Of a stretch of 64,000 nucleotides of DNA, positions 5,596-60,394 are shown piece after piece. The notes below the pieces were generated by a model that was not told the origin of the DNA, made no database searches, and saw only the letters and a program-made list of their open reading frames with translations. How positions within the stretch are numbered: position 1 is the stretch's first letter; each line of letters opens with the position of its first letter. Made by a program: the position numbers and the translations under genes. Source of the DNA: an uncultured Acidobacteriota bacterium (GTDB lineage Bacteria; Acidobacteriota; Blastocatellia; Pyrinomonadales; Pyrinomonadaceae); NCBI GenBank assembly GCA_963750925.1, contig CAVVSJ010000004.1, forward strand, positions 893,946-957,945. Direction: 5' to 3'.

Positions 5596-6126
5596 TTGAT
5601 TATTGAAAACTCAAACTCTGATCAACCAACATGGTTTGCGATTTGTACCAACCCCAAACAGGAAGATCGCGCAGCTAGCAATCTCCAAGCGTGGGGCGTG
5701 GAATGTTTCAATCCAAAAGTGAAGGAATGTCGTCGCAACGAATTTACAGGCAGAGCTACGCTTATACCTAAACCTCTGTTTCCGAGATACATATTCTCGC
5801 GCTTTAGTTTAAGCAGCTCGCTCCACAAAATTAGTTTTACGCGCGGTGTTCATCGAATCGTGAGCTTCGACGACAAGCCAACTCCAATCGACGACGACGT
5901 GATCGCTTTGTTACAGGCCCGCGTGGATGATGACGGTTTTCTGAAACTCGGAGAGCCGCTTAAGCCTGGCGACAAAGTGAGAGTGAAAGATGGTCCATGG
6001 CAGACTCTCGTCGGCGTAGTTGAACGTGATATGAAGGCAGATGAGAGAATTATGATTCTGTTGGATACCATCAAGTTTCAGAGTCGCTTGACGATCGAAA
6101 GAGATCGCGTGGAAAAGATCAGTTAA
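5596..6126 (+). CDS. NusG-family specialised paralog (RfaH/LoaP/TaA-like), NGN + KOW domains
   Basis: NGN-like WFAICTNPKQEDRAASNLQAWGVECFNPKV...PLFPRYIFSRF...TRGVHRIVSF. KOW-like LKPGDKVRVKDGPWQTLVGVVERDM. The ORF track starts at GTG 5575. The in-frame TTG 5596 has AGGAGG (5581-5586) 9 nt upstream, so I prefer it. Confidence 0.8.
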   Translation: MIIENSNSDQPTWFAICTNPKQEDRAASNLQAWGVECFNPKVKECRRNEFTGRATLIPKPLFPRYIFSRFSLSSSLHKISFTRGVHRIVSFDDKPTPIDDDVIALLQARVDDDGFLKLGEPLKPGDKVRVKDGPWQTLVGVVERDMKADERIMILLDTIKFQSRLTIERDRVEKIS

Positions 6127-6156
6127 CGAAAAAAGGTTCGCCTTACACTGCACGAA

Positions 6157-6314
6157 ATGGGCCCGGCATCCTCGACCAGGGCCCATAATGGGTGAACGTA
6201 CGTCAAATCCCCCGAGGCCTTGCGTCTCGAGGGTGTAGCACGCTCTACGCACGTTCACCATCACCAAATAGTCTGCTGAGACTTTGCCTGTTGGCGCAAA
6301 GTGCGGTAGCTCTG
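6157..6314 (+). promoter_or_regulatory. structured 5' leader of the NRPS operon with an ops-like TGCGGTAGC motif
   Basis: Four stems are visible. (1) atgggccc 6157-6164 pairs with gggcccat 6179-6186. (2) ggtgaacgt 6191-6199 pairs with acgttcacc 6251-6259. (3) That stem encloses a small cgag/ctcg stem. (4) actttgc 6281-6287 pairs with gcaaagt 6296-6302. Then gTGCGGTAGCtctg (6301-6314) matches 7 of 8 bases of the enterobacterial ops core GGCGGTAG, 26 nt before the ATG at 6340. Confidence 0.4.
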
Positions 6315-6339
6315 CCCATTTCACGACCGCACACAAACG

Positions 6340-7491
6340 ATGCGGCCGGCACTGAGCTCTGAGTTGATGAATATAACCGCGGCGACACTCGTCGACCTGC
6401 TTCAATGGCGCGCTCAACGTCATCCGGAGCGAGTAGCCTACACGTTCCTCTCCGATGGACCAGGGGAAGAACTCACCTTTGGGGCACTCGACGGACAAGC
6501 GCGTGCGACCGGTGCATGGTTGCAGTCGCTGACTTCGCCTGGCGATCGTGTGCTCGTGCTCTATCCGCCCGGGCTTGAATACATCACCGTATTCTTCGGC
6601 TGTCTCTATGCGGGCGTAATCGCCGTACCTGCCTACCCTCCTCGACACAATCGCAACCTGCTGCGTTTGCAGTCTCTCATCGACGACGCGCAACCCGCAG
6701 TGGCGTTGACCACACCGTCGATACTTTCAAGAGTCACAGCTTCATTCGCAGGAAATCCCGGCCTGGCAAAACTTCGCTGGCTTACTGCCGGCAAGCACGC
6801 GCATAGCGATTGCTGGGCGCCACCTGCGATCACGAGCGCTGATCTTGCATTCCTCCAATACACGTCCGGCTCGACCTCCGCGCCCAAGGGCGTGATGCTG
6901 ACTCACGGCAATCTCCTGCACAACGATCGTCTGTTGCAAAAAGCTTTTGGCCAGACGGAGCAATCGATCATCGCCGGTTGGTTGCCGCTCTACCACGACA
7001 TGGGGCTGATCGGCATAGTGCTTCATTCACTTTCGGTCGGCGCGCGCTGCATCCTGATGTCGCCAATGACGTTTTTGCAGCAGCCGTTTCGCTGGTTACA
7101 GACAATCTCCGAGTACCGAGCGACGACGAGTGGTGGTCCAAACTTCTCTTACGAACTCTGCGTGCGCAAGATTACGGACGAACAGCGAGCAACTCTCGAT
7201 CTGACTCCTGGAACGTTGCCTTCAACGGCGCCGAACCAGTCAGAGCGGAGACGATTGATCGCTTCGCAAAAACTTTTGCGCCGTGCGGCTTCCGCCGCGA
7301 AGCCTTTCGCCCTTGTTACGGACTCGCGGAGGCGACGTTGCTCGTCTCCGCGCGCGAACACTCCAACCGTCAACAGACACCGCCTCTCGTCAAAGAAGTT
7401 TCTAAAAAAGCTCTGGAGCAAAATCGGATTGTCGAGGCGACGAACGAAGAGTTTGAAACACGCAAAGCCGTCGGCTGCGGCAATGCTTTGA
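6340..7491 (+). CDS. fatty acyl-AMP ligase (FAAL) domain, N-terminal part; reading frame lost near 7201-7206
   Basis: Adenylate-forming motifs YPPGLEYITVFFGCLYAGVIAVPAYPP and LQYTSGSTSAPKGVMLTHGNLL. Sense is lost after ...DEQRATLDL (about aa 288). The domain continues in the +2 frame as SWNVAFNGAEPVR... in ORF 6978-16139. Confidence 0.8.
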   Translation: MRPALSSELMNITAATLVDLLQWRAQRHPERVAYTFLSDGPGEELTFGALDGQARATGAWLQSLTSPGDRVLVLYPPGLEYITVFFGCLYAGVIAVPAYPPRHNRNLLRLQSLIDDAQPAVALTTPSILSRVTASFAGNPGLAKLRWLTAGKHAHSDCWAPPAITSADLAFLQYTSGSTSAPKGVMLTHGNLLHNDRLLQKAFGQTEQSIIAGWLPLYHDMGLIGIVLHSLSVGARCILMSPMTFLQQPFRWLQTISEYRATTSGGPNFSYELCVRKITDEQRATLDLTPGTLPSTAPNQSERRRLIASQKLLRRAASAAKPFALVTDSRRRRCSSPRANTPTVNRHRLSSKKFLKKLWSKIGLSRRRTKSLKHAKPSAAAML

Positions 7492-10400
7492 CCGAAGTGG
7501 CAATCGTTAACCCTGATTCGCTCAACCGGTGCGCGCCAGGTGAAGTCGGTGAAATCTGGGTTTCTGGTCCAAACGTCGCCGCCGGTTACTGGAACAAACC
7601 GGTCGAGAGCGATGAAACGTTTCGAGCGGTCCTGAAAAATGAAGATGGACATTTTCTGCGCACCGGCGATCTCGGCTTTGTCCGGGATGGCGAACTATTT
7701 CTCACCGGACGGCTCAAGGATGTGATACTCAGTCGCGGCCGGAATCACTATCCGCAGGACATCGAGTTGACTGTCGAGCAGTGTCATCCGTCGCTGCGGT
7801 CCGGTTGCGGCGCAGCATTTTCCGTGCTCGTCCACGATGAAGAACGTGTGGTGGTGGTCCAGGAGATAGAGCCGCGCCACTCGCCTGAGTTGCAGCCTCT
7901 CATCGCGTCGATTCGCGAGGCGATCAGCGAGGAACACGAAATCGCGGCACATGCGATCGTGCTCGTAAAAGCCGGGACGGTGCCCAAAACCTCGAGCGGC
8001 AAGATTCAACGAAGAGCATGCCGGAAGTTGTTTATCGAGAGTGGACTCGAGATTGTTGGGCAGTGGCGGGAGAGTCTCTCCGAGGAAAGCGGCGACCAGT
8101 CGCCGCACTCCAAAGAGGTTGCGGGTACGGTTGAAGACTGGTTGCGAGCGGAGTTTGCCGCGCTCCTGAAGATGAACGTCGCCGAGGTTGACGTTCAGCA
8201 GCCGATCCTGCGATATGGTTTGGATTCACTGTCCGCGACGGAGTTGACGCACCGGATCGAGAGCGTATTTGGGGTGGGCGTTCCGCTCACCGCTCTGCTC
8301 GAAAATCCCAGCATCGCACAACTCACAAACACGATCGAGAAGTGTGTGCAGAAACCTGCGGCGCTCGCGCCTGCCGAGGAGAGCGAGGAGCACCCGCTTT
8401 CGTTTGGGCAGAAGTCTTTGTGGTTTTTGCACCGGCTACAGCCGGAGAGTGCTGCGTACAATCTCTCGACTGCCTTTCGCATGTACGGCGAGTTGGATGT
8501 TGCGGCCCTGCAGCGCGCGTTTGAGGGCCTGGTCCAACGTCACGCCGCCTTGAGAACGACGTTCTCGCAAAACGGCGGCGAGCCTGTGCAGAAAGTAAAC
8601 AAACACCTGCCCGTTTGTTTCGAGCAGGTAGATGCTTCGTCATGGACGGAAGAAGTTGCGGGCGAATGGCTGGCGCAAGACGCGCACCGGCCGTTTGATT
8701 TGAGCACGGGTCCTTTGCTGCGTGTGTCGTTGTTGCGCCGTTCGGATCGCGAGCATGTCCTGCTCTTTGTAGTACATCACATCGTCTCCGACTTCTGGTC
8801 GCTTGCGGTTTTGATGAAGGAACTCGGCGTGCTCTACGAAGCGGAGTTGCGACAGACCGGCGCGAAGTTGTCACCTTTGTCGTTGCAATACATCGATTAC
8901 GTGCGGCAAGAGACGGCGATGTTGCAGGGGCCACGCGGCGAGCAACTCTGGAATTACTGGCGCGCCCAGCTCAACGGTGAGTTGCCTTCGCTGAATCTTC
9001 CCACCGATCGGCCGCGTCCGGCGCAGCAGAGTTTTCGCGGATCGTCACGACCGTTCAGGCTGAATTCCGAACTTGCGCTAAAACTCAGAGACCTCAGCCG
9101 TTCGGAAGGCGCAACGCTCTACATGGTCCTGCTCGCGGCGTTTCAAGCGCTGCTCTATCGATACACGGAACAGAAAGAATTTGTCGTAGGGTCACCTGCC
9201 GCGGCGCGTAATTCGGCTGCGATGTCCTCCGTGAGCGGCTACTTCGTGAACCCCCTCGCTTTGCGCGCGGATCTGTCCGGCAATCCGTCTTTTGTCGAAC
9301 TACTGGCTCGCGTGCGTCGCACGGTCCTCGATGCTTTTTCGCATCAGGAGTTTCCTTTCGCATTGCTGGTCGCGCGACTGCAACCCACACGCGATCCGAG
9401 TCGCAGCCCGTTGTTTCAGCACATGTTTGTGATGCAGCAATCCGGCGGCACGGGTGATCTGGCGGCGTTTGTGCTCGGCGACAGCAAGACGCAATTGGAA
9501 TTCGGCAAACTGCGTCTCGAGCCGGTGAATTTGGACGGGGGTGTATCGCTCTTCGATCTGAGATTGTCCGTCGCGGAAGCGGCGGAGACCCTCGTCGGCT
9601 CGATGGAATACAACTCCGACCTGTTCGAGGCTGCGACGATCGATCGCATGTTGGGCCACTTTGAGGAATTGCTCGAGAGTCTCGTTACGGACCCGCATCA
9701 GTCACTTCACCGGCATTCGCTGTTAACAACGTCTGAGAGAGAGTTGCTGACGGCGTGTAACGACACCGCGATTGATTATGGCCCATACCGCACACTCCAC
9801 GAACTCATCGACGAACAGGCGGAGCGCACACCAAATAACGTCGCGGTCAGGTTCGAAGATGAAGAACTGACTTATGCGGAGCTCGAGCGGCGCGCGGATT
9901 TACTTGCGCGTGAGCTGCGGGAATCGGGTGTCGGGCTCGACGTGACAGTCGGCGTCTGCATGGAGCGTTCGCCCGAATTGGTGGTGGCTTTGCTAGGCAT
10001 CCTCAAAGCCGGTGGCGCTTATGTGCCGCTCGATCCGGGTTATCCGCGCGAGCGTCTGCGGTTCATGCTCGAAGATTCGAGACCACCGGTGTTGTTGACA
10101 CAGAGTCGTCTGCGAGGACTGTTGCCGGAGTCAATAGCGGCGGAGGTTATCTGCGTCGACGAGAGCCTTCCTCGCCAAGGCGCAAAGGCGCAAAGGAAGC
10201 AAGGACGTTCGCAAAGTGGGAAGAATCTTGCTTACGTAATTTACACATCCGGCTCGACTGGTCAGCCAAAAGGCGCGATGAACACCCATGAGGGCATCGT
10301 CAACCGGCTGTTGTGGATGCAGGATCAATATCGATTGACGGCGGCTGACTGCGTGCTGCAAAAAACGCCTTTCAGTTTCGACGTCTCGGTGTGGGAATTC

Positions 10401-13400
10401 TTTTGGCCGCTGATTACGGGCGCGCGATTGGTGCTCGCGAGACCCGGTGGGCATCAGGATGCCGCCTACCTCGCCGATCTAATTGAATGTGAGCGTGTTA
10501 CGACGCTGCACTTCGTGCCTTCTATGTTGCACGCATTTCTGGCGAATGCGTCGCCCAATCGTTGCGCAAGCCTCAAGCGAGTGATTTGCAGCGGTGAAGC
10601 ACTCTCGTACGAATTGCAGGAACGTTTTTACGCGACGATGAGTGCCGAACTGCACAACCTTTACGGCCCGACCGAAGCCGCGGTTGATGTGACTTACTGG
10701 GCGTGTCAGCGCGGGCAGAGACAGGTAGTGCCGATTGGACGCCCGATCGCCAACACCGAAATCTACATCGTCGATTCGATGGGCCAACCGGTACCTGTCG
10801 GGGTCGCAGGCGAACTGCTAATCGGCGGTGTCGGCCTGGGACGCGGATATCTTGCGCGGCCGGATCTTACCGCGGAACGCTTTCAGCCAAATCCGTTTGC
10901 CGGCGAACCCGGTGCGCGTCTTTATCGCAGCGGCGACCTGGCGCGCTACCTCGCCGACGGCGAGATCGAGTACCTGGGACGTCTGGACCAGCAGGTGAAG
11001 TTGCGCGGTTTTCGCATCGAGCTGGGAGAAATTGAAGCGGCTCTCAGCACCCACGACGGCGTGCGTGAGTGTGTTGTGACCACGAATGAGCTTGCTCCCG
11101 GCGACGTGCGTTTGATCGCGTACGTGGTCCATCAGGTGGGCGGCACAGTTGCGTCTGAAGAGTTGCGACGCCACTTGCAGGAGAGACTGCCGGAATACAT
11201 GGTGCCGGCGTTTTTCGTTTGTCTGGATGAGATTCCACGTTTACCCAACGGCAAGATCGATCGACGCAGCCTGCCCGCGCCCTCTGCGGCACGGCCTGAA
11301 CTGGAACGTGAGTTTGTACCGCCGCGAAACCGGATCGAGGCCGAGGTCGCATCGATCTGGACAGCGGTGCTTGGTTTGGAGCAGGTCGGTGTTCATGACA
11401 ACTTCTTCGCACTCGGTGGTCACTCTCTCCTCGCCACGCAGATAGTCTCTCGTATCAACCAGTCGTTCGGGATCGACTTCCCGCTCAGGAAAATGTTTGA
11501 CGTTCCAACCGTTGCGGCGCTTGCGGAAGTCATCGATCAAAGTGCTCCGGCCGTGCGGCCACACGCGATCCAACGTGTTTCGCGCGAAGAAAGTCTGCCG
11601 CTCTCGTTCGCGCAGCAGCGTCTATGGTTTCTTGAACAGCTCGACCCGGCGAATGCGGCTTACAATATGCCGGTCCTGCTGCGCATCGATGGACCACTTG
11701 ACCTCGCCGTGCTCGAGCGATCCATCGCGGAGATCGTTCGTCGTCACGACGTGTTGCGCACGAGTATAGGTAACATTGCGGGCAGTCCGGTCCAGGTTGT
11801 GGCGCCGCCCGAACCGTGGACGTTGCCGGTCGTCGACTTGTCCGGCTTGCCAAAACATTACGGCTGGGCCGAAGCGATGCGGCGCGCGACGAAGGAAGCA
11901 CAACGGTCTTTTGATCTGACCACAGGCTCCCTCCTGCGCGCCCTCGTTTTGCGACTCGATGCGACCGATCATCTGCTTCTCTTCACGATGCATCACATCG
12001 TCAGCGACGGTTGGTCCATGGGCGTCTTCTGCGCTGAGTTGAGTGCGCTCTACAAGGCTTTTAAGGCCGGCCGGCCCTCGCCGCTTCCGGAGTTGCCGAT
12101 TCAATATGCCGACTTCGTGCAGTGGCAGCGCGAGCACCTCGCCACGGACGTCGACGAACAGCTTGCGTACTGGAAGCAGCAACTTGCCGGTCGTCTTCCG
12201 GTTATCGCATTGCCGAATGAACTGCAACGTCTGCCGGCGCCCACCGTTCGTGTCGCAACAGAATCGGTAGCTCTGCCGCCTCAGTTGCATAAGACTCTGA
12301 AAGAGTTCAGTCGCACTCGCGGAACCACGCTCTTCAACACCCTTCTGACTGCGTTTCAGATCCTGCTGCAACGCTATACCGGTCTCGAAGACATTGTGGT
12401 CGGCACACCCGTCGCCGGCCGCACGCGCGTCGAAACGGAAACACTCATCGGACTCTTCGCAAACACGCTCGTGCTGCGTAGCGATCTGTCAGGCAATCCG
12501 ACTTTCGGCGAGCTCCTCGATAAGGTTCGTGAGATGACGCTCGAAGCGCACGCGCACCAGGACGTTCCGTTCGAAATGCTCGTGGAAGAGTTGCACCCGG
12601 AAAGAGACTTGACGCGCACTCCGCTCTTCCAGGTGATGATTGTTCTCGACGCTCCACTGTCGGAAATCGATCTGCCGGAGTTGCAGGTACAGCAGATCGA
12701 ACTCGCCACGACAGCGCCAAAATTTGACCTGCTTTTGTTTCTGAGAGACCGGGGCGATGAGCTCGTCGCGGCGTGGGAGTACAACACTGCGCGTCTCGAC
12801 GGCGGAACCGTGAGCCGGATGGCGCAACAGTTTATGACCCTCCTGGAGCACGCGCTCGCAAATCCGGAACAGCGCATCTCGGACCTGGAACTTTTGACCG
12901 AGGCCGAACAGCGACATCTATTGGTGGAATGCAACGCCACGTCGTTGAACTATTCGCGAGACGTCTGTCTGCACCAACTCTTCGAAACTCAAGTCGCGCG
13001 CACGCCGGACTTGACGGCGCTCGTCTCGGGCGCGGAACGCCTGAGCTATCACGACCTGAACGAACGCGCGAATCGCGTTGCTCATCACCTGCGCTCGCTC
13101 GGCGTTGGACCAGAGTCGCTTGTCGGTGTATTGCTGGAGCGTTCGAGCCGGTTGATCGTGTCGTTGCTGGGTGTGCTCAAAGCAGGCGCTGCTTACGTGC
13201 CGCTCGATCCGGCGTACCCGCGCGAACGTCTGCGACTGATGCTCGACGATGCGGGCGTCGCGGTGCTGCTGACGCAGCAGAGTTTGATCGACGATCTGCC
13301 GTCTCACGACGCGCGTGTTGTTTGTGTCGATTCAGATTGGGAAAACATCGCGGCGCAGAGTAGCGATAACCTTCTGAATCAAACGCTGCCCGCAAATCTC

Positions 13401-16139: not shown

Positions 16140-16140
16140 C

Positions 16141-16220: not shown

Positions 16221-16235
16221 TTCCTCAGTTGAATC

Positions 16236-17276
16236 ATGATTAGTCAGGAATTTAGATCGTCGCGACGCAGGGCTGTGCGTCTGAATCCGGCGGCGTTGAC
16301 CAGGAATTACTATCTCGATGCCGAGCGCCGGTTGCCGCTCGTCGTCGAGCCGGCGGTGAACGATCTCGAGCTGGCGACATGGGCCATGGACCATCGCGAG
16401 TTTATTGCCGATGAGCTGGCGCGTCACGGCGCAATCCTGCTGCGTGGATTCGACGTTCGGACGGTGGAGAGTTTTGAGAGATTTGTCGCTGCGACCTCGA
16501 ATGGCGCCTTACCTTACAACGAACGTTCTTCACCGCGCAGCCAGGTAAACGGGAACATATACACGTCGACGGATTACCCCGCGTCTGAACGCATTTTTCT
16601 GCACAACGAGCAATCGTACAACTTGCAGTTTCCGTTGAAGATCTACTTTTTCTGCCTCGTGAAAGCTGACGAAGGCGGCGAGACACCAATCGCCGACACG
16701 CGCAGAGTTTTTGCACGGATTGATCCGGAAATCCGGCGTCGTTTCTCAAAGCATGGTTACACCTACGCGCGAAACTTCGGCAACGGCTTTGGATTGTCAT
16801 GGCAGGACACTTTCCAAACACGAAGCAAAGCTGAAGTGGAGCAGTACTGCGCCCAACATCAGATTTCATGCAAGTGGCTGGGTGGTGATCGATTGCGCAC
16901 CGCGCAAGTGAGACCCGCGATCGCGCAGCATCCGCGAACCGGGGAGTTGGCCTGGTTTAATCACGCGACTTTTTTTCACGTCTCGACTCTCGAACCTGTA
17001 ATTCGCGAACGCGTGCTCGCCGAGTTTGGTGAGGAGGATTTGCCGAACAACACCTATTACGGCGACGGCGCGCGTATTGAACCTGAAGCGATGGACCATC
17101 TGCGGCAGGCCTATCTGCAGGAGAAGATCGTGTTTCCGTGGCAGCAGTATGATGTGTTGATGCTGGACAACATGCTGACCTCACACGCGCGCGAAGCGTT
17201 TAGCGGACGCCGCCAGGTCGTTGCCGGTATGGCCGATCCGTGTCTCTGGAATGACGTCTTACCCACCGAGTTGTAG
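16236..17276 (+). CDS. TauD/TfdA-family (SyrP-like) Fe(II)/2-oxoglutarate dioxygenase
   Basis: 346 aa. HxE facial-triad start in IFLHNEQSY, GGETPIADTR, and distal His/Arg in LDNMLTSHAREAFSGRR. Its size and position inside an NRPS operon resemble carrier-protein-dependent amino-acid beta-hydroxylases. Confidence 0.8.
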   Translation: MISQEFRSSRRRAVRLNPAALTRNYYLDAERRLPLVVEPAVNDLELATWAMDHREFIADELARHGAILLRGFDVRTVESFERFVAATSNGALPYNERSSPRSQVNGNIYTSTDYPASERIFLHNEQSYNLQFPLKIYFFCLVKADEGGETPIADTRRVFARIDPEIRRRFSKHGYTYARNFGNGFGLSWQDTFQTRSKAEVEQYCAQHQISCKWLGGDRLRTAQVRPAIAQHPRTGELAWFNHATFFHVSTLEPVIRERVLAEFGEEDLPNNTYYGDGARIEPEAMDHLRQAYLQEKIVFPWQQYDVLMLDNMLTSHAREAFSGRRQVVAGMADPCLWNDVLPTEL

Positions 17277-17281
17277 AAGCC

Positions 17282-29255: not shown

Positions 29256-29269
29256 GCACGAATTAATTT

Positions 29270-29336: not shown

Positions 29337-29365
29337 CTCTGGCTGTGAACACAAGGGTCGAAATA

Positions 29366-35300: not shown

Positions 35301-38300
35301 CCGAGAACCTTGCGTACGTCATGTACACGTCAGGGTCGACGGGTGAACCGAAAGGCGTGAGCATCACGCATCGCGGCGTGCTGCGTCTCGTTAAGGAGAC
35401 GAACTTTGCGAACTTCGGAACGGATGAAGTGTTCCTGCAACTCGCGCCCGTCACTTTTGACGCGTCGACTTACGAAGTGTGGGGAAGTTTACTCAACGGC
35501 GGACGGCTCGTGATCATGCCGCCGGAAGCGCCTGAGCTGGATGAACTGGGAGCAGCGCTGCAGCGTTATGGTGTGACGACGTTGTGGCTCACGGCCGGCC
35601 TGTTTCATCTGATGGTGGACCAGCGTCCGGATGACCTGCGAGGGCTCCGCCAACTGCTTGCCGGCGGTGACGTGCTGTCGCCAACGCACGTGCGAAAGAG
35701 TCTGAGCATTGTTCAGGGCCAGGTGGTCAATGCTTATGGACCAACGGAAAACACGACCTTTACCACCACGAACCCGATGACGCGTGAGACGCAATTCGAC
35801 GGCGTGGTTTCGATCGGGCGTCCAATTGCGAACACGCAAGTTTACCTGCTGAATCGAGAGCTCGAGCCGGTGCCGGTCGGCGCGATGGGCGAACTCTACA
35901 CCGGCGGCGACGGTCTCGCACGCGGTTACCATAATCGACCCGAGTTCACCGCCGATCGTTTTATTCCGCATCCTCATGGGCCTGCCGGCGCGCGGCTTTA
36001 TCGAACAGGTGACCTGGCCCGTTATCTTCCCGACGGTCGCATAGAGTTTGTCGGAAGGTTGGACCAGCAGGTCAAAGTACGCGGTTTCCGCATCGAGCTG
36101 GAGGAGATCGAGATCGCACTGGCATCTCATCCGGCGGTGCGGCAGTGCGTCGTCCTTGCGCGTGCAGATGGAGGCCGCGAGAAACAACTCGTCGCATACG
36201 TTGTGCTGCAGGCAGAACGTGAACTAACCGCAACGGAGATGCGTTCGTACCTGGGCCGGCACCTGCCGGAGTACATGGTTCCGCCACAGCTCGTCGTGCT
36301 CGAGGCGTTTCCGCTGACGTCAAATGGAAAAGTGAATCGCAAGGCGTTGCCTGCTCCGGGTGACGTGCGGGATTCATCACAGAATGGATTTGTCGCGCCG
36401 CAATCCGCTGCCGAGAAGGTGCTGGCGGAAGTTTGGCAGGAGGTGCTGGGCGTCGAGCGCGTCAGTGTCAACGATAACTTTTTCGATCTCGGCGGCGATT
36501 CGATCCGCAGCATCCAGGTGCAGGCGCAGGTGGAGGAGCGCGGCTTCGAAGTTTCCGTTCGCCAGATCCTGCAAGTCCAGACGCTTGGCGATCTCGCGCG
36601 CGAAGCGAAGGACGCGACCGGGATTGTCCGGAGGCATTCGCGGACCCTCCCGTTCAGCCTGGTCAGAAGCGAGGATCTTCAGAAGCTGCCCGAAGAGATA
36701 GAGGACGCGTATCCACTCTCGTTTCTGCAAAGAGGCATGTTGTATCACACCGGGGTGAGCGGGGAACTGGCGCTTTACCACGTGATTTTCAGTTGCGTCA
36801 TTCGCGGCGCGCTCGATCCCGTGGCGTTACAGACGGCGATGCAGCAACTCGCCGCGGAGCATCCGGTCCTGCGAACGTCGTTTGACCTGCACTCTTACGG
36901 CGAGCCGTTGCAGTTGGTCCATAAGGAAGTCGTGGTGCCGTTTGAGATCAGGGATCAGCGGCAGCTAACGAAGGCCGAGCAGAAGCAGACGTTCGCGGCC
37001 TGGAAGGAAGACGACAAAGCGCGCGGTTTTGATTGGTCGACCGCGCCGATCATGCGTCTGAACATCTTTCTTCACGACGACGATGAGTTTCGCATTGCAG
37101 TGAGTTTTCACCACGCGGTTCTTGACGGGTGGAGTTTGAGTTCGCTGTTGTCGGAACTCTTCGTGCGCTATCTGGAGCTTCGCGAGGGTGGCGCGCAAGG
37201 GGAAAGAATTGCCGCGCCGGCGACGTTTAGAGACTTCATCGCGCTCGAGCAGGATTCTTTGCAGTCTGAAGAGACGCGGCAGTACTGGTCTGAAAAACTG
37301 GCTTCACTTCCGGCGACGGCGTTGCCGCCGCGCGATGCGGTCGCTTCCGAAGAAGCCGGCAGAAAGGTCATGCAGACGAGTCTCGGCAGCGAGCTGGTCG
37401 ACGGTTTGAAATCGTTTGCGCGGGAGACGGGTGTGTCGCTCAAGTCAGTCCTGCTCGCGACGCACTGCAAGATACTCGGACTGCTGACCGGACAGGCGGA
37501 AGTCACGACCGGCCTGGTTTCAAACGGGCGTCCGGAAGAAGCCGGCGGCGATCGCGCGCTCGGGCTCTTTTTGAACACGATTCCGTTTTCGTTGCCGCTT
37601 CGCGACCGGTCATGGCGCGAGTTGGTCCAGGCCGTTGCCGAGTCTGAGAAAGAGCTGGCGGAGTTTCGCCGTTACCCGTTCGCCGAGCTGCAAAAGTCGC
37701 ATGGCGGCCAGCCTCCTTTCGAGGCCACATTCAACTACACGCACTTTCACATTCTTGAGAAAGTGCATGAGGCTCCGAATTTCGAGGTGGTTGACGTAGA
37801 AGTCTTCAGCCAGATCAACTTTCCTCTCAGCGTCGGATTCGATCTAAACAACAACTCCGAGCTCATCCTCATCCTCGAACACGATCTCTCACGCCTCAGC
37901 GTGCGCCAGGTCGAAGAGATCAAAAACTACTACTCACGCGCGCTTCACGCGATCGTGACGGATCCCGCAGGCGGCGCCGACAACGCGTGGGCGCTGAACG
38001 ACGAGGAGCGCCAACGTCTCCTGGTCCAATGGAACGACACGCGTGCCGAATATCCGGCCGGCGTTTGCCTGCACGAACTGATTGAAGCGCAGGCAGCACG
38101 CACGCCGGGCGCGATTGCCCTGACTTCACGTGACGCAGCAATCACGTACCGTAAATTGAATGAGCGCGCGAACCAACTCGCGCATCACCTCAAGTCGCTG
38201 GGCGTGGGCCCGGAGGTGCTTGTCGGCGTCATGCTCGACCGTTCCGTCGAGATGGTTGTCGCTCTGTTGGGCGTCTTGAAAGCCGGCGGCGCTTACGTCC

Positions 38301-41300
38301 CACTCGATCCGGATTACCCGCGCGAGCGTGTGCGTTTCATGCTTGAAGATGCAGGCGTGGCGGTCTTGCTGAGTGAGTGGGGTTTGGCGGACAGGTTACC
38401 GGACAATGGTCCCACAATACTCTTTGTAGACTCGGATGAGATCCGGCAACAGAGCCGCGCGAATCTCGTGAGTGGCGTGACTGCCGATAACCTGGTCTAC
38501 GTGATTTACACGTCGGGAACCACGGGCCAGCCAAAGGGTTCGATGCTGGACCATCGCGAAGTTGTGAACTGCGTGCTCTGGATGCAGGAGACTTACGCCC
38601 TCACGCCTGAAGATCGAATGTTGTGCAAGACGACGCTCAACTTCGATCCGTCAGTCTGGGAGATCTTCTGGCCATTGATGGTCGGCGGTCAGGTGGTCTT
38701 GAGCCGTCCGGGCGAACAGCACGATCCTGCCGCGCTCGTGCAAACAATTACAAATCAGGAAGTGACGACGGCTTATTTCGTCCCGTCCATGTTGTCCCTC
38801 GTTCTGGCTGAAAAGGAACTCGAACAGGCGACGTCGTTGCAGCAGGTGATCTGCGGTGGTGAATCTTTGCCGCACGATTTGGTCCGGCTCTTTTACGAGC
38901 GTCTGCCTCAGGCCACCCTGCATCACTCGTATGGACCAACAGAGACCGCGATTGCTTCCTCGGAAATAGTCTGCGAGCGCGACAGTTCGTACCGGATAAC
39001 GCCCATTGGCCGCCCACTCGCAAACACGCAGTTGTACGTACTCGATCAGAAAATGCAACTCGTGCCTGCCGGCGTGATTGGGGAGTTGTACATCGGCGGT
39101 GCGGGCGTCGGGCGCGGTTATCTCAATCGTCCTGATTTAACAGCGCAGAAGTTTGTGCCCGATTCGTTCGGGGTTGCTGCCGGCGGCCGTTTGTATCGCA
39201 CCGGCGACATGGTTCGTTACTTACCCGACGGCAATGTCGAATTTCACGGACGACGTGACGAGCAGGTGAAAGTGCGTGGCGTTCGTATTGAACTCGCGGA
39301 GATCGAGACTGCGTTGAGAGCCCTCTCGGAAGTGCAGGCGGCGCTCGTCGCGTTGCGTCAGGACGATGCCGGCGAGAATAACCTGGTGGCGTACGTGGTC
39401 CCGAAAGACGGAGTTGAATTAGTTACGGCTGACTTGCGGCAAAAACTTTCGCAACGCTTGCCCGTCGCGATGGTGCCCGCGATCTTTGTTACCTTGCCGG
39501 AAATTCCGCTTCTGCCAAACGGAAAGATCGATCGGACCGCACTACCCGCGCCGGGAGCCGAACCGGCACATAAGTACGTCGCGCCACATGATGCGACCGA
39601 GGAGCTGATCGCCGGAATCTGGGCTGAAGTTCTCGACCTCGAACGTGTCAGCGTACATGACGACTTCTTCACGATCGGCGGACACTCGCTAACGGCGACG
39701 CAGATCATGGCGCGATTGTTCGACGTGTTCCAGGTCGATCTCGGTTTGCGGGCCTTGTTCGAGACGCCGACGGTCACGGGTCTTGCGCGCCGTGTGAACG
39801 AGGCGATGCGCGAGGGCGCGTTTGGTCAATCACCGACAATCGTGCCGCGAACTCGTCCGCAGTCGCTGCCGCTCTCATTCGCGCAACAGCGACTCTGGTT
39901 CCTCGAACAATTGGAATCCGCGGGCGCTGCTTATCACATCCCGGTCATCTTCCGTATTCATGGCCGGCTCGACGTGCCGGCGCTCGAACGAGTCCTCAAC
40001 GAGATCATGGAGCGTCACGAATCGCTGCGCACGAGTTTTCGCGCGGTAGATGGTGAACCGATGCAGGTGATTGAACCGCATCGAAAAGTGTCCCTGCCGG
40101 TTATCAATCTCAGCGACTTGCCGGAGGCGCAACGCGAGGCTGAAACGGCATTGCTGTCGAGCGAGCAGGCGCAGCTCAAATTTGATTTGACGACTGCTCC
40201 GCTTTTGCACGCGCGTCTCGTGCGATTAAGTGACGAAGAGCACGTGCTGCAACTGTCGATGCATCACTTGATCACCGATGGCTGGTCAGTGGCCGTGCTC
40301 GCGCGCGAGACCGGCGCGCTCTACGAAGCGTTCACGCAGGACAAAGATTCGCCGTTGCCGGCTCTGCGCGCGCAGTATGCCGACTTTGCTTTATGGCAAC
40401 GCGAATGGTTGCAGGGCGATTTACTGGCTGCGCAGATCGACTACTGGCGCAGACACCTTGCGAGCGCGCCGAAGGCGCTCGATCTCCCCACCGATCATCC
40501 GCGTCCGTCAACGCAGAGGTTCCGCGGCGCGCAGCTTCGTTTCAAGCTTCCGTCGTCGCTGACGGCACAGGTGCAGGAGTTGAGCAGGCGTGAAGGCGCG
40601 ACGATCTTCATGACGCTGCTGGCTGCTTACTCAGTGGTGCTGTCGCGTTTCGCGGATCAGGACGACGTTGTAGTCGGTACGCCGATCGCGAATCGTCGTC
40701 AAAGTGAGCTCGAGGATCTGATCGGATTCTTCGCGAACACGCTTGCGTTGCGCGTTAAGGTCCATCCCGCGCTCACCTTTCACGAGTTGCTGCGCAACGT
40801 TCGTGAAGTGACGCTTGGCGCTTATGCGAATCAGGACGTGCCGTTCGAAAAACTCGTGGAAGAATTGCAGCCCGCGCGTGACCTGAACCGCAATCCGTTT
40901 TTCCAGGTGACGTTTGGCGTGCAGAATTTTCCAAACAGTCAGCTCAACCTGCCGGGACTCACGATCAGTATGCAGGAGTTTGATACTGCCGCCACGCGGT
41001 TTGATCTCGAATGTTTCCTGCGCGAAACGGATGGAGAGCTGAACGGAATTTATGTCTACAACACGGACCTGTTTGAAGAACAGACCGTCAAAGACATAAT
41101 CAAACACTTCGAGCAACTGCTGGAAATTGTGACGGCAAATCCGAAAGTCCCAATCAGCGAGTTGCCGAATCCTTTCAGCGCCCTCGAGCGCAAGCGCGTT
41201 ACAGAGGAACAACCGAGCACACACCCGGAGCTGCCGCAGATCGTGGCGGAGACGCCGACGGCGGAGTTGCTGGCAAACATCTGGGCTGAAGTGCTCGGCA

Positions 41301-42865
41301 AAGACCGTATCGGTTTGCACGCCAACTTCTTCGATCTCGGTGGTCACTCGTTGCTGGCGACGCGAGTTATTTCACGCGTGCGTGAAGCGTTCAAACTTGA
41401 AGTGCCGTTGCGACGATTGTTTGAAATGCCGACCGTGTTTGAGCTTTCCGCGTACATCGACGCGCAGCTTGGCTCGGGCACGAACGTGGCCCAGGCTCCG
41501 ATTCGCCGGCAGCAGCAACAGGACAACGCGCGGCCTCTCTCGTTCGCGCAGCAGCGCCTATGGTTCTGGGAGCAGTTGGAGCCGGACACTCCGACTTACA
41601 ATCTCATTTCAGCATTCCGGCTCGTTGGAGATCTGGATCTCGCGGTGATGGAGCAGAGTCTGAATGAGATCGTGCGGCGTCACGAGATTTTACGCACTTC
41701 GTTTACTTCGGTTGACGGCGATCCGGTGCAGGTAGTCGCACCGCGCAAAACCCTGCGACTCACTCTCGTGGATCTGAGTTGGTTGCCGGAAGTGCAACGC
41801 GAAGCGGAAGCGCGCCGGCTCACTGGAGAAGAAGCGTTGCGGCCGTTTGCGTTGAACAAGGCGCCCCTGTTTCGACTCACGATTCTGCGTTTGAGTCCGC
41901 ACGAACACGTTGCGGTCGTGGCCATGCATCACATCATTTCCGACGGCTGGTCAGTGGGCATTTTCGTCGACGAAGTGACCTCGTTGTATGAATCTTATAG
42001 TCTGAAGCAGCCGTCGCAATTGCGCGATCTGCCGGTGCAGTATGCCGACTTTGCGCAGTGGCAAAAAGAGATGTTGCAACCGGGCAGCGAAATTCTCGAG
42101 TCGCAGCTCAGTTACTGGAAAGAGCAATTGCGCGATGCGCCGAACCTGGAGCTGCCGACCGATCGACCTCGACCGGAAGTCTACAATCCGCGCGGCGCGA
42201 TCATGCCGGTGAGTTTCACGACGGAGTTGTCGGATGAACTCAGAGCGTTGAGCCGGCGAGAGCGTGTCACACTCTTCATGACGTTGCTCGCGGCTTTCAA
42301 CGTCATGCTTCATGCACAGAGCGGGCAGGAGGATATTGTCGTCGGAACCGACATTGCCAATCGCACGCGAGTTGAGACTGAAGGACTGATCGGATTCTTC
42401 GTCAACATGCTGGTGCTGCGTACTGATCTCGCCGGCAATCCGACGTTCAGCGAGTTGTTGCAACGCGTGCGCGAAGTCACGCTCGGCGCTTACGCTCATC
42501 AGGACGTGCCGTTTGCAACACTTGTCGGAGAGTTGCACGTGAAGCGCGACTTGAGTCGCAACCCGCTGTTCCAGGTTGTTTGTGTTCTGCAGAATGCTTC
42601 GGCGAAGAAACTCGAGTTGCCGGGACTGACGCTGACTCCGTTCGAGTTCGAGGTCACGACCGCGCCACTCGACATGGTGCTGTCTCTCAATGAACTCGAG
42701 GAAAACCTGGTGGGGTCGATAACGTACAACACCGAACTCTTCGAAGAACACACGATTCGCCGCATGTTCAATCACTATCAGCAGGTGCTTGAACGCGTCG
42801 TAGCCAACCCTCACCAGCCACTTTCCAGCTTGAAAGCATTCGCACGCGCGGTGGCGGCGGATTAA
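29366..42865 (+). CDS. NRPS 3: C-A(Glu)-[FkbM MT]-T-C-A(Val-like)-T-C-A(unassigned)-T-C-T-C
   Basis: The ORF track starts at 29276 inside palindrome C. ATG 29366 begins MKMKNVEDIYPLSPMQEGILFH. C His motifs: YYHGLVDGWS (~29789), HHIISDGWS (~33896), HHAVLDGWS (~37109), HHLITDGWS (~40262), HHIISDGWS (~41926). Carrier serines: GGHSL ~33311, GGDSI ~36491, GGHSL ~39677, GGHSL ~41338. Hand-extracted codes: DAKDLGVVDK, DAYWLGATFK, DPWYIGSIAK. Only ~35 aa separate the fifth C from T5, so there is no A domain there. The protein ends in a C domain with no TE. Confidence 0.9.
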   Translation: MKMKNVEDIYPLSPMQEGILFHTRHDPAFAMYFEIITGTMRGDVDLAAFARAWQSVVDRHAVLRTAFVWEGLDEPVQVVRKRAKLAVTNYDWRGLSSDEQANALAELFAAERARGFDLSKAPLMRVALIQTADDSYRFVWTYYHGLVDGWSGSLVFNDVFSYYEASIRGVEISLPPAPSFRSYIDWVRKQDLDKAREYWQGALRGFKAATPIELVRARETSISDETRSYRELEFSLDAETTAKLVRLSRQQQLTLNTICQGAWAMLLNRYSGEQDVVFGVAVSGRPPMLENVETMIGMLINTLPARIQVTPEAMLIPWLKDIQSAQWEMREYEYSPLVQVQGWSEVSRTSPLFDSIVSFENHPIDYSLLKRSDRAEVRDVVHYHTATGYPINIIIEPGNKLTVKLMYDFGRVDDIAVERILGHLRQLLTAIAENEDRHLSDFAILTPIEQQQLLFEWNGNTAEYRRDVCLHELFEEQVQRTPEAPAVVFRDQQLSFAELNSRANQLARYLRQLGVGPEVRTALCMERSVEMVVGMLAILKAGGVYVPLEMAQPQARLKFMLEDADARVVLTQQALVDLLPKHDVPIVCVDECVLDENADNLPVNATADNLAYVIYTSGSTGTPKGVMVGHRSAVNLVSGLRQAIYDRHAAPLRVSVNAQIVFDASIKQLVQLLGGHTLVVIPEDVRASGEAMLAHIAEQRLDVLDCTPSQLQLLLASEAWERDKPQALLIGGEAISADLWDRLSAQSGTECYNVYGPTECTVDAAIGHVETAGETPNIGHPITNARIYLLDAQQRPVPIGVRGEICVAGECLARGYLNAPGLTAEKFVPEPFSGVAGARMYRTGDLGRYLADGRIEFVGRVDHQVKVRGVRIELGEIEAALRQHAAVRDAVVQVREDITNDKRLIAYVVPEETQGLPLVPKVAGEEREDLLSGRQLTKLPNGMLIAGHGSLQASGVYREIFEDNIYFKHGVRLDEGACVFDVGANIGLFTLFVKQQVRASRVYSFEPLPPNFQALQTNAKLYGLDVKLFECGLSNRRDTATFTFYPHAAAMSGKGTRVEEDKVAAMANVGSWLKTFEHDPHSAPGEYDLDNFVEHYLISESYTCQLRTLSEIIREHGIERIDLLKLDVERSEFDVLTGIEDDDWKKIRQFVIEVHSDELLEQIAALLRTRGYTFAIEKSSIVETSGQDVVRGYMLYAFDPAQRNASSNGHGLNGANPRPLALSDAALSPDSLRNFLLERLPVQMIPTGFVVLKELPLMASGKVDRRALPAPEDQSLLSGDEHVAPRTPVEEIVAGICASVLRLESVSVTANFFDLGGHSLLAAQVISRVRETFHVELSLRSLFLKPTVEGLAENIEKSLTAGDQVAGGRIEPIAHEGELPLSFSQQRIWFLDQMAGSTPYYNITSRVRLQGDLNLEALQKAFSEIVRRHEILRTTFSKVRGRPAQIINPAQPLTLGIEDVPGETFEDRVENARSIARADAEQPFDLNVGPLLRIRLLRLDNSEHLALLTMHHIISDGWSTSVLISELSALYSAFLKGEPSPLPELPLQYVDYAVWQRNWLQGETLETQLNYWREKLQGAPALLELPTDKPRPATQTFNGASENWRIGPQTTARLRQLSRDEGTTLYMTLLAAFKTLLYRYSGQTDLVIGTDIANRTRSETENLIGFFANIVLMRSDMSRNPTFAELLGHVRETALGAYAHQDLPFEKLVEELQPERSLSHAPFFNVIFVLQNTPRGTLDMPGLKLTSEEFDSNFTRFDLEFHLWERDGELSGFLIYNTDLFEAETISRLLGHFTNLLDGIITDPDRRVASLPLLAAEERQTLLTAWNDTATDYPRNDVIHRQFELQAAQRPHATALIFGDREMTYDELNRRANQLAHHLVSLGIGPETPVAVCLERSFEVVIALLGILKAGGYYVPLDREYPIDRLAFMINDSAVPVVLTQTSLLEVLPAHWSQIVTMDDDWEMIANESDENLVTRGTAENLAYVMYTSGSTGEPKGVSITHRGVLRLVKETNFANFGTDEVFLQLAPVTFDASTYEVWGSLLNGGRLVIMPPEAPELDELGAALQRYGVTTLWLTAGLFHLMVDQRPDDLRGLRQLLAGGDVLSPTHVRKSLSIVQGQVVNAYGPTENTTFTTTNPMTRETQFDGVVSIGRPIANTQVYLLNRELEPVPVGAMGELYTGGDGLARGYHNRPEFTADRFIPHPHGPAGARLYRTGDLARYLPDGRIEFVGRLDQQVKVRGFRIELEEIEIALASHPAVRQCVVLARADGGREKQLVAYVVLQAERELTATEMRSYLGRHLPEYMVPPQLVVLEAFPLTSNGKVNRKALPAPGDVRDSSQNGFVAPQSAAEKVLAEVWQEVLGVERVSVNDNFFDLGGDSIRSIQVQAQVEERGFEVSVRQILQVQTLGDLAREAKDATGIVRRHSRTLPFSLVRSEDLQKLPEEIEDAYPLSFLQRGMLYHTGVSGELALYHVIFSCVIRGALDPVALQTAMQQLAAEHPVLRTSFDLHSYGEPLQLVHKEVVVPFEIRDQRQLTKAEQKQTFAAWKEDDKARGFDWSTAPIMRLNIFLHDDDEFRIAVSFHHAVLDGWSLSSLLSELFVRYLELREGGAQGERIAAPATFRDFIALEQDSLQSEETRQYWSEKLASLPATALPPRDAVASEEAGRKVMQTSLGSELVDGLKSFARETGVSLKSVLLATHCKILGLLTGQAEVTTGLVSNGRPEEAGGDRALGLFLNTIPFSLPLRDRSWRELVQAVAESEKELAEFRRYPFAELQKSHGGQPPFEATFNYTHFHILEKVHEAPNFEVVDVEVFSQINFPLSVGFDLNNNSELILILEHDLSRLSVRQVEEIKNYYSRALHAIVTDPAGGADNAWALNDEERQRLLVQWNDTRAEYPAGVCLHELIEAQAARTPGAIALTSRDAAITYRKLNERANQLAHHLKSLGVGPEVLVGVMLDRSVEMVVALLGVLKAGGAYVPLDPDYPRERVRFMLEDAGVAVLLSEWGLADRLPDNGPTILFVDSDEIRQQSRANLVSGVTADNLVYVIYTSGTTGQPKGSMLDHREVVNCVLWMQETYALTPEDRMLCKTTLNFDPSVWEIFWPLMVGGQVVLSRPGEQHDPAALVQTITNQEVTTAYFVPSMLSLVLAEKELEQATSLQQVICGGESLPHDLVRLFYERLPQATLHHSYGPTETAIASSEIVCERDSSYRITPIGRPLANTQLYVLDQKMQLVPAGVIGELYIGGAGVGRGYLNRPDLTAQKFVPDSFGVAAGGRLYRTGDMVRYLPDGNVEFHGRRDEQVKVRGVRIELAEIETALRALSEVQAALVALRQDDAGENNLVAYVVPKDGVELVTADLRQKLSQRLPVAMVPAIFVTLPEIPLLPNGKIDRTALPAPGAEPAHKYVAPHDATEELIAGIWAEVLDLERVSVHDDFFTIGGHSLTATQIMARLFDVFQVDLGLRALFETPTVTGLARRVNEAMREGAFGQSPTIVPRTRPQSLPLSFAQQRLWFLEQLESAGAAYHIPVIFRIHGRLDVPALERVLNEIMERHESLRTSFRAVDGEPMQVIEPHRKVSLPVINLSDLPEAQREAETALLSSEQAQLKFDLTTAPLLHARLVRLSDEEHVLQLSMHHLITDGWSVAVLARETGALYEAFTQDKDSPLPALRAQYADFALWQREWLQGDLLAAQIDYWRRHLASAPKALDLPTDHPRPSTQRFRGAQLRFKLPSSLTAQVQELSRREGATIFMTLLAAYSVVLSRFADQDDVVVGTPIANRRQSELEDLIGFFANTLALRVKVHPALTFHELLRNVREVTLGAYANQDVPFEKLVEELQPARDLNRNPFFQVTFGVQNFPNSQLNLPGLTISMQEFDTAATRFDLECFLRETDGELNGIYVYNTDLFEEQTVKDIIKHFEQLLEIVTANPKVPISELPNPFSALERKRVTEEQPSTHPELPQIVAETPTAELLANIWAEVLGKDRIGLHANFFDLGGHSLLATRVISRVREAFKLEVPLRRLFEMPTVFELSAYIDAQLGSGTNVAQAPIRRQQQQDNARPLSFAQQRLWFWEQLEPDTPTYNLISAFRLVGDLDLAVMEQSLNEIVRRHEILRTSFTSVDGDPVQVVAPRKTLRLTLVDLSWLPEVQREAEARRLTGEEALRPFALNKAPLFRLTILRLSPHEHVAVVAMHHIISDGWSVGIFVDEVTSLYESYSLKQPSQLRDLPVQYADFAQWQKEMLQPGSEILESQLSYWKEQLRDAPNLELPTDRPRPEVYNPRGAIMPVSFTTELSDELRALSRRERVTLFMTLLAAFNVMLHAQSGQEDIVVGTDIANRTRVETEGLIGFFVNMLVLRTDLAGNPTFSELLQRVREVTLGAYAHQDVPFATLVGELHVKRDLSRNPLFQVVCVLQNASAKKLELPGLTLTPFEFEVTTAPLDMVLSLNELEENLVGSITYNTELFEEHTIRRMFNHYQQVLERVVANPHQPLSSLKAFARAVAAD
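30719..32047 (+). repeat. A-domain core duplicate, copy 2 (pairs with 19672-21009)
   Basis: See copy 1. The flanks on both sides are unrelated or strongly diverged: the upstream C domains differ in type, and the downstream MT inserts are only roughly half identical at the protein level by eye. Confidence 0.9.
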
Positions 42866-60385: not shown

Positions 60386-60394
60386 ACCCATATC

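Follow-up and report, generated by a model that had tools for sequence, protein, structure and literature searches.

A conserved FAAL-primed NRPS/PKS gene cluster family of soil Pyrinomonadaceae with likenesses to AMB and myxoglucamide biosynthesis

Results and discussion

A hybrid assembly line conserved among soil Pyrinomonadaceae

Positions 5596–42865 of a 64 000-nucleotide stretch of DNA from an uncultured Acidobacteriota bacterium of the family Pyrinomonadaceae (contig CAVVSJ010000004.1 of assembly GCA_963750925.1; 'the window' hereafter means this whole stretch) carry a hybrid nonribosomal peptide synthetase (NRPS)/polyketide synthase (PKS) assembly line that belongs to a genuine, conserved and uncharacterized lipopeptide/polyketide gene cluster family of soil Pyrinomonadaceae. 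Its predicted product class is an N-acyl peptide–polyketide of ~7–8 units. We hold, with moderate confidence, that this is a biosynthetic operon under an RfaH-like NusG paralog and an ops-like leader, and that it makes such an N-acylated peptide–polyketide by the steps proposed below. Most of the oddities of the cluster match published enzyme logic and are not unprecedented. What we have not found described is their combination: two cassettes of the type known from AMB biosynthesis, one of them feeding a PKS fused to a luciferase-like monooxygenase (LLM), within a FAAL-primed line of eight units that ends in C-T-C (condensation–thiolation–condensation).

The open reading frame (ORF) map of the window shows seven co-directional genes on the + strand: a NusG paralog, a FAAL-NRPS gene (G1), two TauD-family oxygenase genes (TauD1 and TauD2), an NRPS gene with a methyltransferase (MT) domain (G4), the PKS-LLM gene (G5) and a large NRPS gene (G6). 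With the best start codons (TTG at 5596 for the NusG paralog, GTG at 18430 for G4 and ATG at 29366 for G6), the successive intergenic gaps are 213, 96, 5, 122, −4 and ~110 nt. An earlier note, made from the letters of this DNA alone, was right about the common direction of the genes and wrong in placing all gaps within 0–123 nt, since 213 nt separate the NusG paralog from G1. Its domain strings are all reproduced here through Pfam, BLAST searches of the proteins with their own domains, motif searches and an alignment of nine C domains, and the resulting domain maps support its reading of a FAAL-primed NRPS/PKS hybrid with an N-acyl product of ~7–8 units. Chance is not an issue, given ORFs that reach 13.6 kb and Pfam E-values from ~1e-13 to 0.

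The gene order of the cluster is found again, at 55–82% identity, in many Pyrinomonadaceae metagenome-assembled genomes (MAGs) and soil metagenome contigs; related loci from public genomes, MAGs and metagenome contigs are designated here by L-numbers (L001, L003, L088 and so on). The order [FAAL-NRPS]-TauD-TauD-[C-A-MT-T]-[PKS-LLM]-[NRPS], where A is adenylation, recurs in L001/L002 (ENA and JGI contigs), in GCA_036387195.1 (L003/L004), in L138 and in the P0257 contig, and within it the TauD-TauD-[C*-A-MT-T]-PKS block, C* being a C domain that lacks the catalytic His, is kept at 55–80% identity in L001, L003/L004, L138 and the P0257 contig. The 5′-end of the cluster is covered by L088, where identity is 78% for the NusG paralog, 72% for the upstream Crp-family gene and 73% for the FAAL-C starter, and also by L089. 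Because every gene junction is seen in independent contigs, a chimeric contig, which the earlier note had named as a possible refutation, is excluded. An acidobacterial origin agrees with the GC content of 51–60% and with the flanking genes, which include an ECF sigma factor (PF07638) and a TPR-repeat Ser/Thr kinase.

Several functions common in such clusters had been reported as missing, and our scans agree. Pfam searches of ORFs of at least 150 aa in the cluster and the flanking window DNA gave no thioesterase (TE) or reductase (R) domain, and likewise no epimerization (E) domain, glycosyltransferase or P450; motifs of MbtH proteins and Sfp-type phosphopantetheinyl transferases were absent from all six frames of the window. 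The lack of an E domain is not anomalous in itself, as an all-L peptide needs none. No transporter family was recognized in the scanned flanking ORFs, of which one has sub-cut-off DUF4956/MgtC matches and several have no match; a transporter might still be encoded among those ORFs that lack a clear match.

We found no paper on the cluster, on its product or on any cluster that shares its overall gene order and domain string, so that a published counterpart, for which the earlier note had recommended a check, did not turn up. This absence is what speaks for regarding the line as unprecedented, in which case the C|C* tandem, the module that lacks an A domain and the absence of a TE would reflect either unfamiliar biochemistry or an assembly chimera. 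Such a view is, to our minds, scarcely credible, because all gene junctions are reproduced in independent contigs and because a published analogue exists for each oddity. The architecture was thus called rule-breaking and unrecognizable too hastily: precedents from AMB, from the myxoglucamides, from interface domains and from terminal C domains match its odd features.

Proposed assembly of the product

In the route that we propose, FAAL-ACP would load a fatty acid, which the starter C domain would join to Ser, with Ala added next, and the last C domain of G1 would condense the acyl-Ser-Ala chain with the Glu that the G4 T domain carries. The C* of G4 would then be a non-catalytic interface (I/'Q')-type domain and not a second condensation catalyst. 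By analogy with AmbC/AmbD, both TauD enzymes would hydroxylate the tethered Glu, at C3 and C4, and the embedded FkbM-type MT would O-methylate one of the two Glu hydroxyls. G5 would extend the modified Glu with malonate, with reduction and then dehydration by its LGP-type DH domain, and its fused FMN-dependent LLM would oxidize the alpha position to give an alpha-hydroxy/alpha-keto gamma-amino acid, as in the myxoglucamides. G6 would add a second modified Glu from the same type of cassette, then a Val-like residue and then the residue of its third A domain, after which the chain would pass through the A-less C-T unit and be released by the terminal C domain through hydrolysis, cyclization or capture of a nucleophile. 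The domain content, the A-domain codes, the missing catalytic His of C*, the conservation of the cassette and its association with TauD genes are observed; the sites of hydroxylation and methylation, any vinyl-ether formation, the alpha-oxidation, the use of T4 and the mode of release are predictions.

The oxygenase pair, the interface-type domain and the Glu-MT cassettes

The two TauD-family Fe(II)/2-oxoglutarate oxygenases (TauD1, 16236–17276, +, Pfam TauD E 7.6e-43; TauD2, 17282–18307, +, E 8.4e-48) are 49% identical in pairwise alignment. In each, the alignment shows HxE and, towards the C-terminus, SHxRE, motifs that we read as putative metal and 2-oxoglutarate ligands; TauD1 has HxE...H and Arg. 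The best PDB matches of TauD2 are 9YUT and At3g21360, both clavaminate-synthase-like. TauD1 is conserved in L001, L003, L138 and the P0257 contig, and the TauD genes are kept as a pair in the orthologs.

G4 (18430–22455, +; GTG start likely) follows with an interface-type C* (~18457–19680), an A core (19738–21183), an FkbM-type MT (21229–21828), the A9–A10 region (~21949–22068) and a T domain (22147–22338). Stachelhaus codes were read off via A4, A5 and neighbouring anchor motifs, and the A domain of G4 and the first A domain of G6 have the same code, DAKDLGVVDK, which we take to be the canonical Glu code. In both of these Glu A domains the PF05050 MT lies between A8 and A9 and has an intact SAM motif, VxDVGANIG. 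Their cores form a direct repeat of 1.34 kb (19672–21009, +, against 30719–32047) with 94% DNA identity by blastn, and the surrounding modules have diverged to only ~66% protein identity; the two cores have probably been homogenized through gene conversion.

The C* domain of G4 is ~420–460 aa long and is matched by Pfam Condensation with an E-value of 2.6e-52, and it carries TQPSLCGDAESL (QPSLCGD) in place of the HHxxxDGxS of the other C domains in the nine-domain alignment. The corresponding position reads QPALCADA in the orthologs L001 and L003 and LPALCAD in TauD-linked C* domains of the unrelated clusters L090 and L102, and the pattern [PS]A[LMI][CS]xD is also found in more distant C* relatives, including P0394 of Nostoc, whose gene sits right after a TauD gene in L142 (Nostoc). 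A homology search with C* alone returned 25 short matches only, none of which carried a name. In every context that could be inspected (the window, L001, L003, L138, the P0257 contig, L090, L102 and L142), a TauD gene lies upstream of a C*-type domain, either directly or within ~1.6 kb. As the loss of the His residues is shared by orthologs and by relatives in TauD-linked contexts, it is not a private accident, and the conserved motif points to C* being a His-less interface-type domain in its own right and not a defective C domain. The succession of one protein closing with C and the next opening with C* would, by analogy, be a known arrangement in which the upstream C is the catalyst.

The number of oxygenases varies with the type of module. 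The Glu-MT cassettes always have two (the TauD pair, or TauD plus PhyH in L141), and one TauD accompanies the single I-A(Asn)-T module of L090 and L102, where the partner A domain has the Asn-type code DLTKIGEVGK. This difference fits two hydroxylations per Glu residue, as in AMB, and tells against a simpler chemistry for the same line, in which each TauD would beta-hydroxylate one T-bound Glu and the MT would give beta-methoxy-Glu or a gamma-methyl ester, with no decarboxylative formation of a vinyl or vinyl-ether group. The presence of an interface domain in just one of the two Glu modules is a further point against this simpler scheme. On the other side, two TauD paralogs at 49% identity match two A(Glu)-MT-T modules, an AmbE-C2-like dehydrating C domain was not identified in the line, and a paralog pair, KtzO/KtzP of kutzneride, offers a precedent, as cited in PMC7100376. 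Overall we consider the simpler chemistry unlikely and prefer double hydroxylation of each Glu.

Combinations of TauD enzymes with interface domains are typical of beta-hydroxy-aspartate siderophores, interface domains with stand-alone TauD hydroxylases having first been defined in siderophore NRPSs (Reitz et al. 2019, as cited in PMC12971057 and in the cyanochelin preprint), and FAAL-primed lipid siderophores exist (PMC7100376). The product could on these grounds be a lipopeptide siderophore with beta-hydroxy-acid groups as its iron chelators. We think this very improbable: the substrate is Glu rather than Asp or His, methylation by the O-methyltransferase would block a hydroxyl needed for chelation, a PKS with an alpha-oxidation module is not siderophore-like, and no TonB-dependent receptor, siderophore-transport or iron-regulation gene was recognized in the 64-kb window.

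Searches around the cassette brought up two further groups of proteins. Representatives retrieved with the MT as query, which at ~2.1 kaa are AmbE-sized, have the domain string C-A-MT-MT-T-C and were set aside. The locus L141 (ENA ERZ25039533 contig_22647), a distant C-A-MT-T-C-A-MT-T cluster, provides another context for FkbM-interrupted A domains; its flanks hold genes for TauD and a PhyH dioxygenase, for two radical-SAM proteins, of which one carries a fused C-like region, and for a C domain that stands alone.

Polyketide extension and alpha-oxidation

G5 (22452–29255, +; Pfam and motifs) encodes KS (22485–23615), AT (24054–25016), KR (25905–26495), DH (26565–27395), ACP (27735–27914) and LLM (28212–29123) domains. 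The GHSIG/HAFH motifs of the AT indicate malonyl, KS and KR retain their motifs intact, and the DH has the HxxxGxxxxP motif (HRIGGRAVLP) together with an LGP that replaces the usual YGP/FGP (DLGPRW), a deviation shown to be functional in the DH of MxgC from the myxoglucamide (mxg) pathway (PMC13638107). Against TIGR04020, the model for MupA/Atu3671 FMN-dependent LLM proteins, the LLM domain scores 497.1 bits (cut-off 244.45). As the mxg FMN-dependent oxygenase installs an alpha-hydroxy/alpha-keto group on a gamma-amino acid made from Glu plus malonate (PMC13638107), an alpha-oxidized gamma-amino acid would, by analogy, be the most economical prediction for the outcome of G5. Full-length homologs of G5 are many (55–81% identity), and all come from soil metagenomes or from MAGs named Pyrinomonadaceae.

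G6 and the end of the line

The largest gene of the cluster, G6 (29366–42865, +; Pfam, BLAST, motifs and alignment), encodes C-A(Glu)-MT-T-C-A-T-C-A-T-C-T-C. Its first module consists of C1 (29396–30727, with the motif YHGLVDG), A(Glu) (30788–32230), MT (32306–32884) and T (33239–33430), its second of C2 (33491–34834), a Val-like A domain (34883–36331; code DAYWLGATFK) and T (36419–36598), and its third of C3 (36701–38023), an A domain to whose code, DPWYIGSIAK, no residue is assigned (38084–39535), and T (39605–39787). The line then closes with C4 (39866–41167), the A-less T4 (41267–41458) and the terminal C5 (41534–42844). Two proteins thus end in a C domain, as had been noted before: G6, with C5, and G1, whose last C domain has the motif HHIIADG.

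This unusual end is not peculiar to the window. The G6 ortholog of L138 has 4493 aa, like the window protein, and that of L001 has 4924 aa; the C4-T4-C5 end is collinear and conserved in L007 (82%), L008 (70%) and L006 (62%). In L009, a Pro-like A domain (DVQLVGHVVK, at ~8400–9860) sits between the equivalents of C4 and T4; the gain or loss of one entire A domain therefore accounts for the A-less state. The genes 3′ of the line differ from relative to relative (a response regulator and a kinase in L007, a PLP enzyme in L009, another NRPS in L006), and because C-T-C is kept and the downstream genes are not, the missing TE is a conserved property and not an artefact of a contig edge.

One candidate for the missing release function was tried and rejected. 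An alpha/beta hydrolase of the cofactor-free chloroperoxidase/arylesterase family lies 281 nt 3′ of G6 (43147–43986; E 5e-138 to PDB 1A8S), where it might have acted as a thioesterase or as a SyrC-like shuttle; its GHSTG nucleophile motif, its match to chloroperoxidase F/arylesterase and its absence 3′ of the line in L007, L008 and L009 speak against either role. As a separate observation, L008 has a tailoring set that is absent from the window: the region 3′ of its 73%-identical terminal C domain (6785–13467) holds genes for a carbamoyltransferase resembling OTCase, for a PhyH dioxygenase, for a LanB-N-like protein of 801 aa whose N-terminal domain is of the lantibiotic-dehydratase type, and for an M28 peptidase.

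Dual E/C domains were considered as an explanation for the missing E domains. They are marked by a second, N-terminal His motif, HH[I/L]xxxxGD (Rausch 2007, PMC1894796), which a regular-expression search found in none of the six proteins. Five C domains form one class, with 39–50% mutual identity and best PDB matches to Txo1/2 and TycC6, which outscore SrfA-C and TycB1, and C1 and C3 of G6 fall by alignment and PDB similarity into a separate 'LSPMQEG'-type class.

The FAAL-NRPS gene and its frameshift

G1 (6340–16139, +; Pfam, BLAST, motifs and alignment) encodes, at approximate positions, FAAL (6340–8060), ACP (8136–8378), a starter C domain (8388–9749; motif HHIVSDF), A(Ser) (9786–11318; code DVWHISLVDK) and T (11346–11534), followed by C (11586–12923), A(Ala) (12951–14453; code DLFNNALTYK), T (14487–14675) and the last C (14733–16055). 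The earlier note took it for one uninterrupted gene and missed a 1-nt deletion at 7204/7205: the codon after ...EQRATLDL consists of 'ac' only (7204–7205), after which the frame shifts and continues as SWNVAFNGAEP, and the closest ortholog, that of L088, reads LDLSSWNV at this site. The deletion splits G1 into two reading frames (6340–7491 and 6978–16139).

This deletion is either a sequencing error or a true pseudogenizing mutation. If it is real, the lipoinitiation module would not be made and the cluster would be a relic without product, an alternative that we find doubtful and yet the one to be taken most seriously. It draws on the site of the frameshift, which lies outside any homopolymer, and on the orthologs of G1, which are single intact genes of ~3350 aa. 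Set against it, the other 35 kb are coding and undisrupted, including ORFs of 13.6 kb and 6.8 kb, which would be unexpected in a decaying cluster, and a second gene of the window, hsdS, is likewise split into two frames, a sign that the assembly may contain sporadic indel errors.

Points that weigh on the proposed route

Other observations count against this route, at least in part. TauD1/2, the MT and C* are likened to AmbC/D, AmbE-MT/Q and MxgB-I on the strength of architecture and published chemistry, and in this sense the likeness is an analogy. C2 of G6 scores 396 bits against the C domain of teixobactin Txo2 and 75 bits against AmbE-C2 (7R9X), and as it is so much closer to the Txo domain, a vinyl-ether-forming step would be left without an identified catalyst; according to a review, the catalytic residues of dehydrating C domains (DHCs) are not conserved among them. 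The Glu-MT module of G6 opens with a His-containing C domain, and only G4 has an interface-type domain. The loading of the A-less T4 is not accounted for. The FMN-dependent oxygenase of mxg is fused to a C domain (MxgE), and here the LLM is fused to the PKS. Finally, this copy of the cluster may be inactive owing to the FAAL frameshift.

A NusG paralog and an ops-like leader element

The operon is headed by a specialized, RfaH-like NusG paralog (5596–6126, +), which probably starts at the TTG at 5596, behind a GGAGG ribosome-binding site, and matches Pfam NGN with an E-value of 9e-16. Among the NCBIfam models, RfaH is the best (104 bits, cut-off 144.5), followed by UpxY (69, cut-off 100), LoaP (46, cut-off 125) and NusG (42, cut-off 136), yet all four scores fall below their cut-offs. 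In many MAGs of Pyrinomonadaceae and Blastocatellia, a homolog with 44–78% identity stands ahead of FAAL/NRPS genes. Judging by these profiles and contexts, the paralog would act like the RfaH, UpxY and LoaP families and represent a separate lineage.

Between this gene and the FAAL gene, alignment reveals an ops-like leader element, TTGGCGCAAAGTGCGGTAGCTCTGCCC (6293–6320, +). Of 38 acidobacterial loci examined, 13 have the 15-mer TGCGGTAGCTCTGCC, or a version of it with 1–5 changes, at a distance of 125–433 nt 3′ of the NusG paralog; besides the window, the Pyrinomonadaceae and Blastocatellia biosynthetic loci that carry the element are L088, L089, L090, L095, L096, L099, L102, L103, L105, L111, L112, L113 and L117. 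Its core, GCGGTAGC, is presumably that of the Escherichia coli RfaH ops element. The pairing of paralog and element suggests a candidate acidobacterial RfaH/ops-type antitermination system, as yet undescribed, that would serve long NRPS/PKS operons.

Neighbouring genes and implications

At the other end of the window lies a type I restriction-modification operon (54981–62023) with hsdR, hsdS and hsdM, in which a PrrC-like anticodon nuclease gene (59249–60385; PADLOC PrrC, 441 bits) is inserted between hsdS and hsdM. The split hsdS consists of two overlapping ORFs in different frames (57970–58833 and 58662–59252).

Acidobacteria are abundant in soil and almost untapped chemically, with very few natural products characterized. 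The cluster family described here is widespread in Pyrinomonadaceae metagenomes and appears to re-use rare AMB and myxoglucamide chemistry, with Glu derivatives that are hydroxylated, O-methylated and possibly vinylic and with alpha-oxidized gamma-amino acids, in a far larger lipopeptide, and it yields a concrete, testable structure prediction that makes it a rational target for heterologous expression or synthesis. The family also offers natural experiments on the role of interface domains, on the passing of a chain by an A-less C-T unit and on release by a terminal C domain, and the pair of NusG paralog and ops-like element could serve as a handle to activate silent acidobacterial clusters. 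A bolder form of the proposal, which we advance as speculative, would have two Glu-derived residues of the oxyvinylglycine type in the lipopeptide, one of them extended by the PKS and oxidized to a methoxyvinyl alpha-keto gamma-amino acid, with TE-free release by C-T-C, and would place this family and many other Pyrinomonadaceae biosynthetic gene clusters under undescribed RfaH/ops-like antitermination. Were the two oxyvinylglycine residues real, a PLP-enzyme-inactivating warhead and an alpha-ketoamide warhead would be united in one molecule.

Comparison with known systems

As in RfaH- and LoaP-type systems, whose specialized NusG paralogs confer processivity on long operons, an NGN-KOW protein heads a long operon, here of 37 kb, RfaH is the best profile, and a leader element containing GCGGTAG is conserved. 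The paralog differs in scoring below the RfaH, UpxY and LoaP cut-offs and in its acidobacterial lineage, and the element is TGCGGTAGCTCTGCC instead of GGCGGTAGnnTG.

The closest likeness for the Glu-MT cassette is the biosynthesis of AMB (L-2-amino-4-methoxy-trans-3-butenoate, methoxyvinylglycine; ambABCDE, Pseudomonas aeruginosa), in which AmbB (A-T-C) is followed by AmbE (Q-A(Glu)-MT-T1-C2-T2-TE), with AmbC and AmbD as additional enzymes (PMC4357302, PMC8968710, PMC10880069), and the N-terminus of AmbE is a stretch of 461 aa without known function before A(Glu)-MT-T1 (PMC4357302). AmbC and AmbD hydroxylate the T1-bound Glu at C3 and C4, the MT O-methylates the 4-OH and AmbB's C domain adds Ala, after which AmbE-C2 dehydrates the intermediate, decarboxylation gives the methoxyvinyl group and the product moves to the A-less T2 (PMC8968710, PMC10880069). 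The two systems share a pair of Fe(II)/2-oxoglutarate oxygenase genes beside the NRPS, a non-catalytic N-terminal stretch of ~460 aa, an A(Glu) domain with embedded MT, a T domain, a preceding protein that ends in C, and an A-less C-T unit. They differ in that a TE releases AMB, a dipeptide prodrug, whereas here the cassette occurs twice in a long TE-less lipopeptide/PKS line; what comes after the G4 T domain is a KS instead of a dehydrating, CmodAA-type C domain, and there is no LysE exporter gene.

The mxg pathway of Cystobacterineae sp. MCy9003 starts with FAAL-ACP-C (MxgA), followed by MxgB with I-A(Glu)-PCP, and the C domain of MxgA condenses (Wang et al., Angew. Chem. 2026, PMC13638107). 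The window cluster resembles it in its FAAL-ACP-C start and in a later protein with I-A(Glu)-T, although here Ser and Ala modules lie between the two, and also in a 2-oxoglutarate oxygenase for PCP-bound Glu, in a His-less interface domain before A(Glu), in a PKS with KR and LGP-type DH, and in an FMN-dependent monooxygenase for alpha-oxidation. In mxg, however, the 2-oxoglutarate oxygenase is a single domain fused to MxgA, where we see two free-standing enzymes; mxg has no MT and possesses an E domain on its PKS as well as TE, P450 and glycosyltransferase functions, all lacking here, and its product is of tripeptide size, against about eight predicted units.

Interface domains of NRPSs with trans-acting beta-hydroxylases (Reitz et al. 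2019; glidomide GlmF system) likewise have a C fold without HHxxxDG, stand right before the A domain of the hydroxylated residue and are linked to TauD enzymes. There the substrates are Asp or His, whereas here the substrate is Glu (Asn in L090 and L102), and the context is not that of a siderophore.

For the end of the line, AlbB-C3 of albopeptide is a terminal C domain that dehydrates and releases hydrolytically, AmbE C2-T2 exemplifies transfer to an A-less T domain, and CroK-C2 of crocacin exemplifies release by a terminal condensation domain. With AlbB-C3 and CroK-C2 the present line shares its ending in a C domain with intact HHxxxDG and no TE or R domain; it differs from them in the A-less T domain that precedes the terminal C, which gives the cluster family its conserved C-T-C end.

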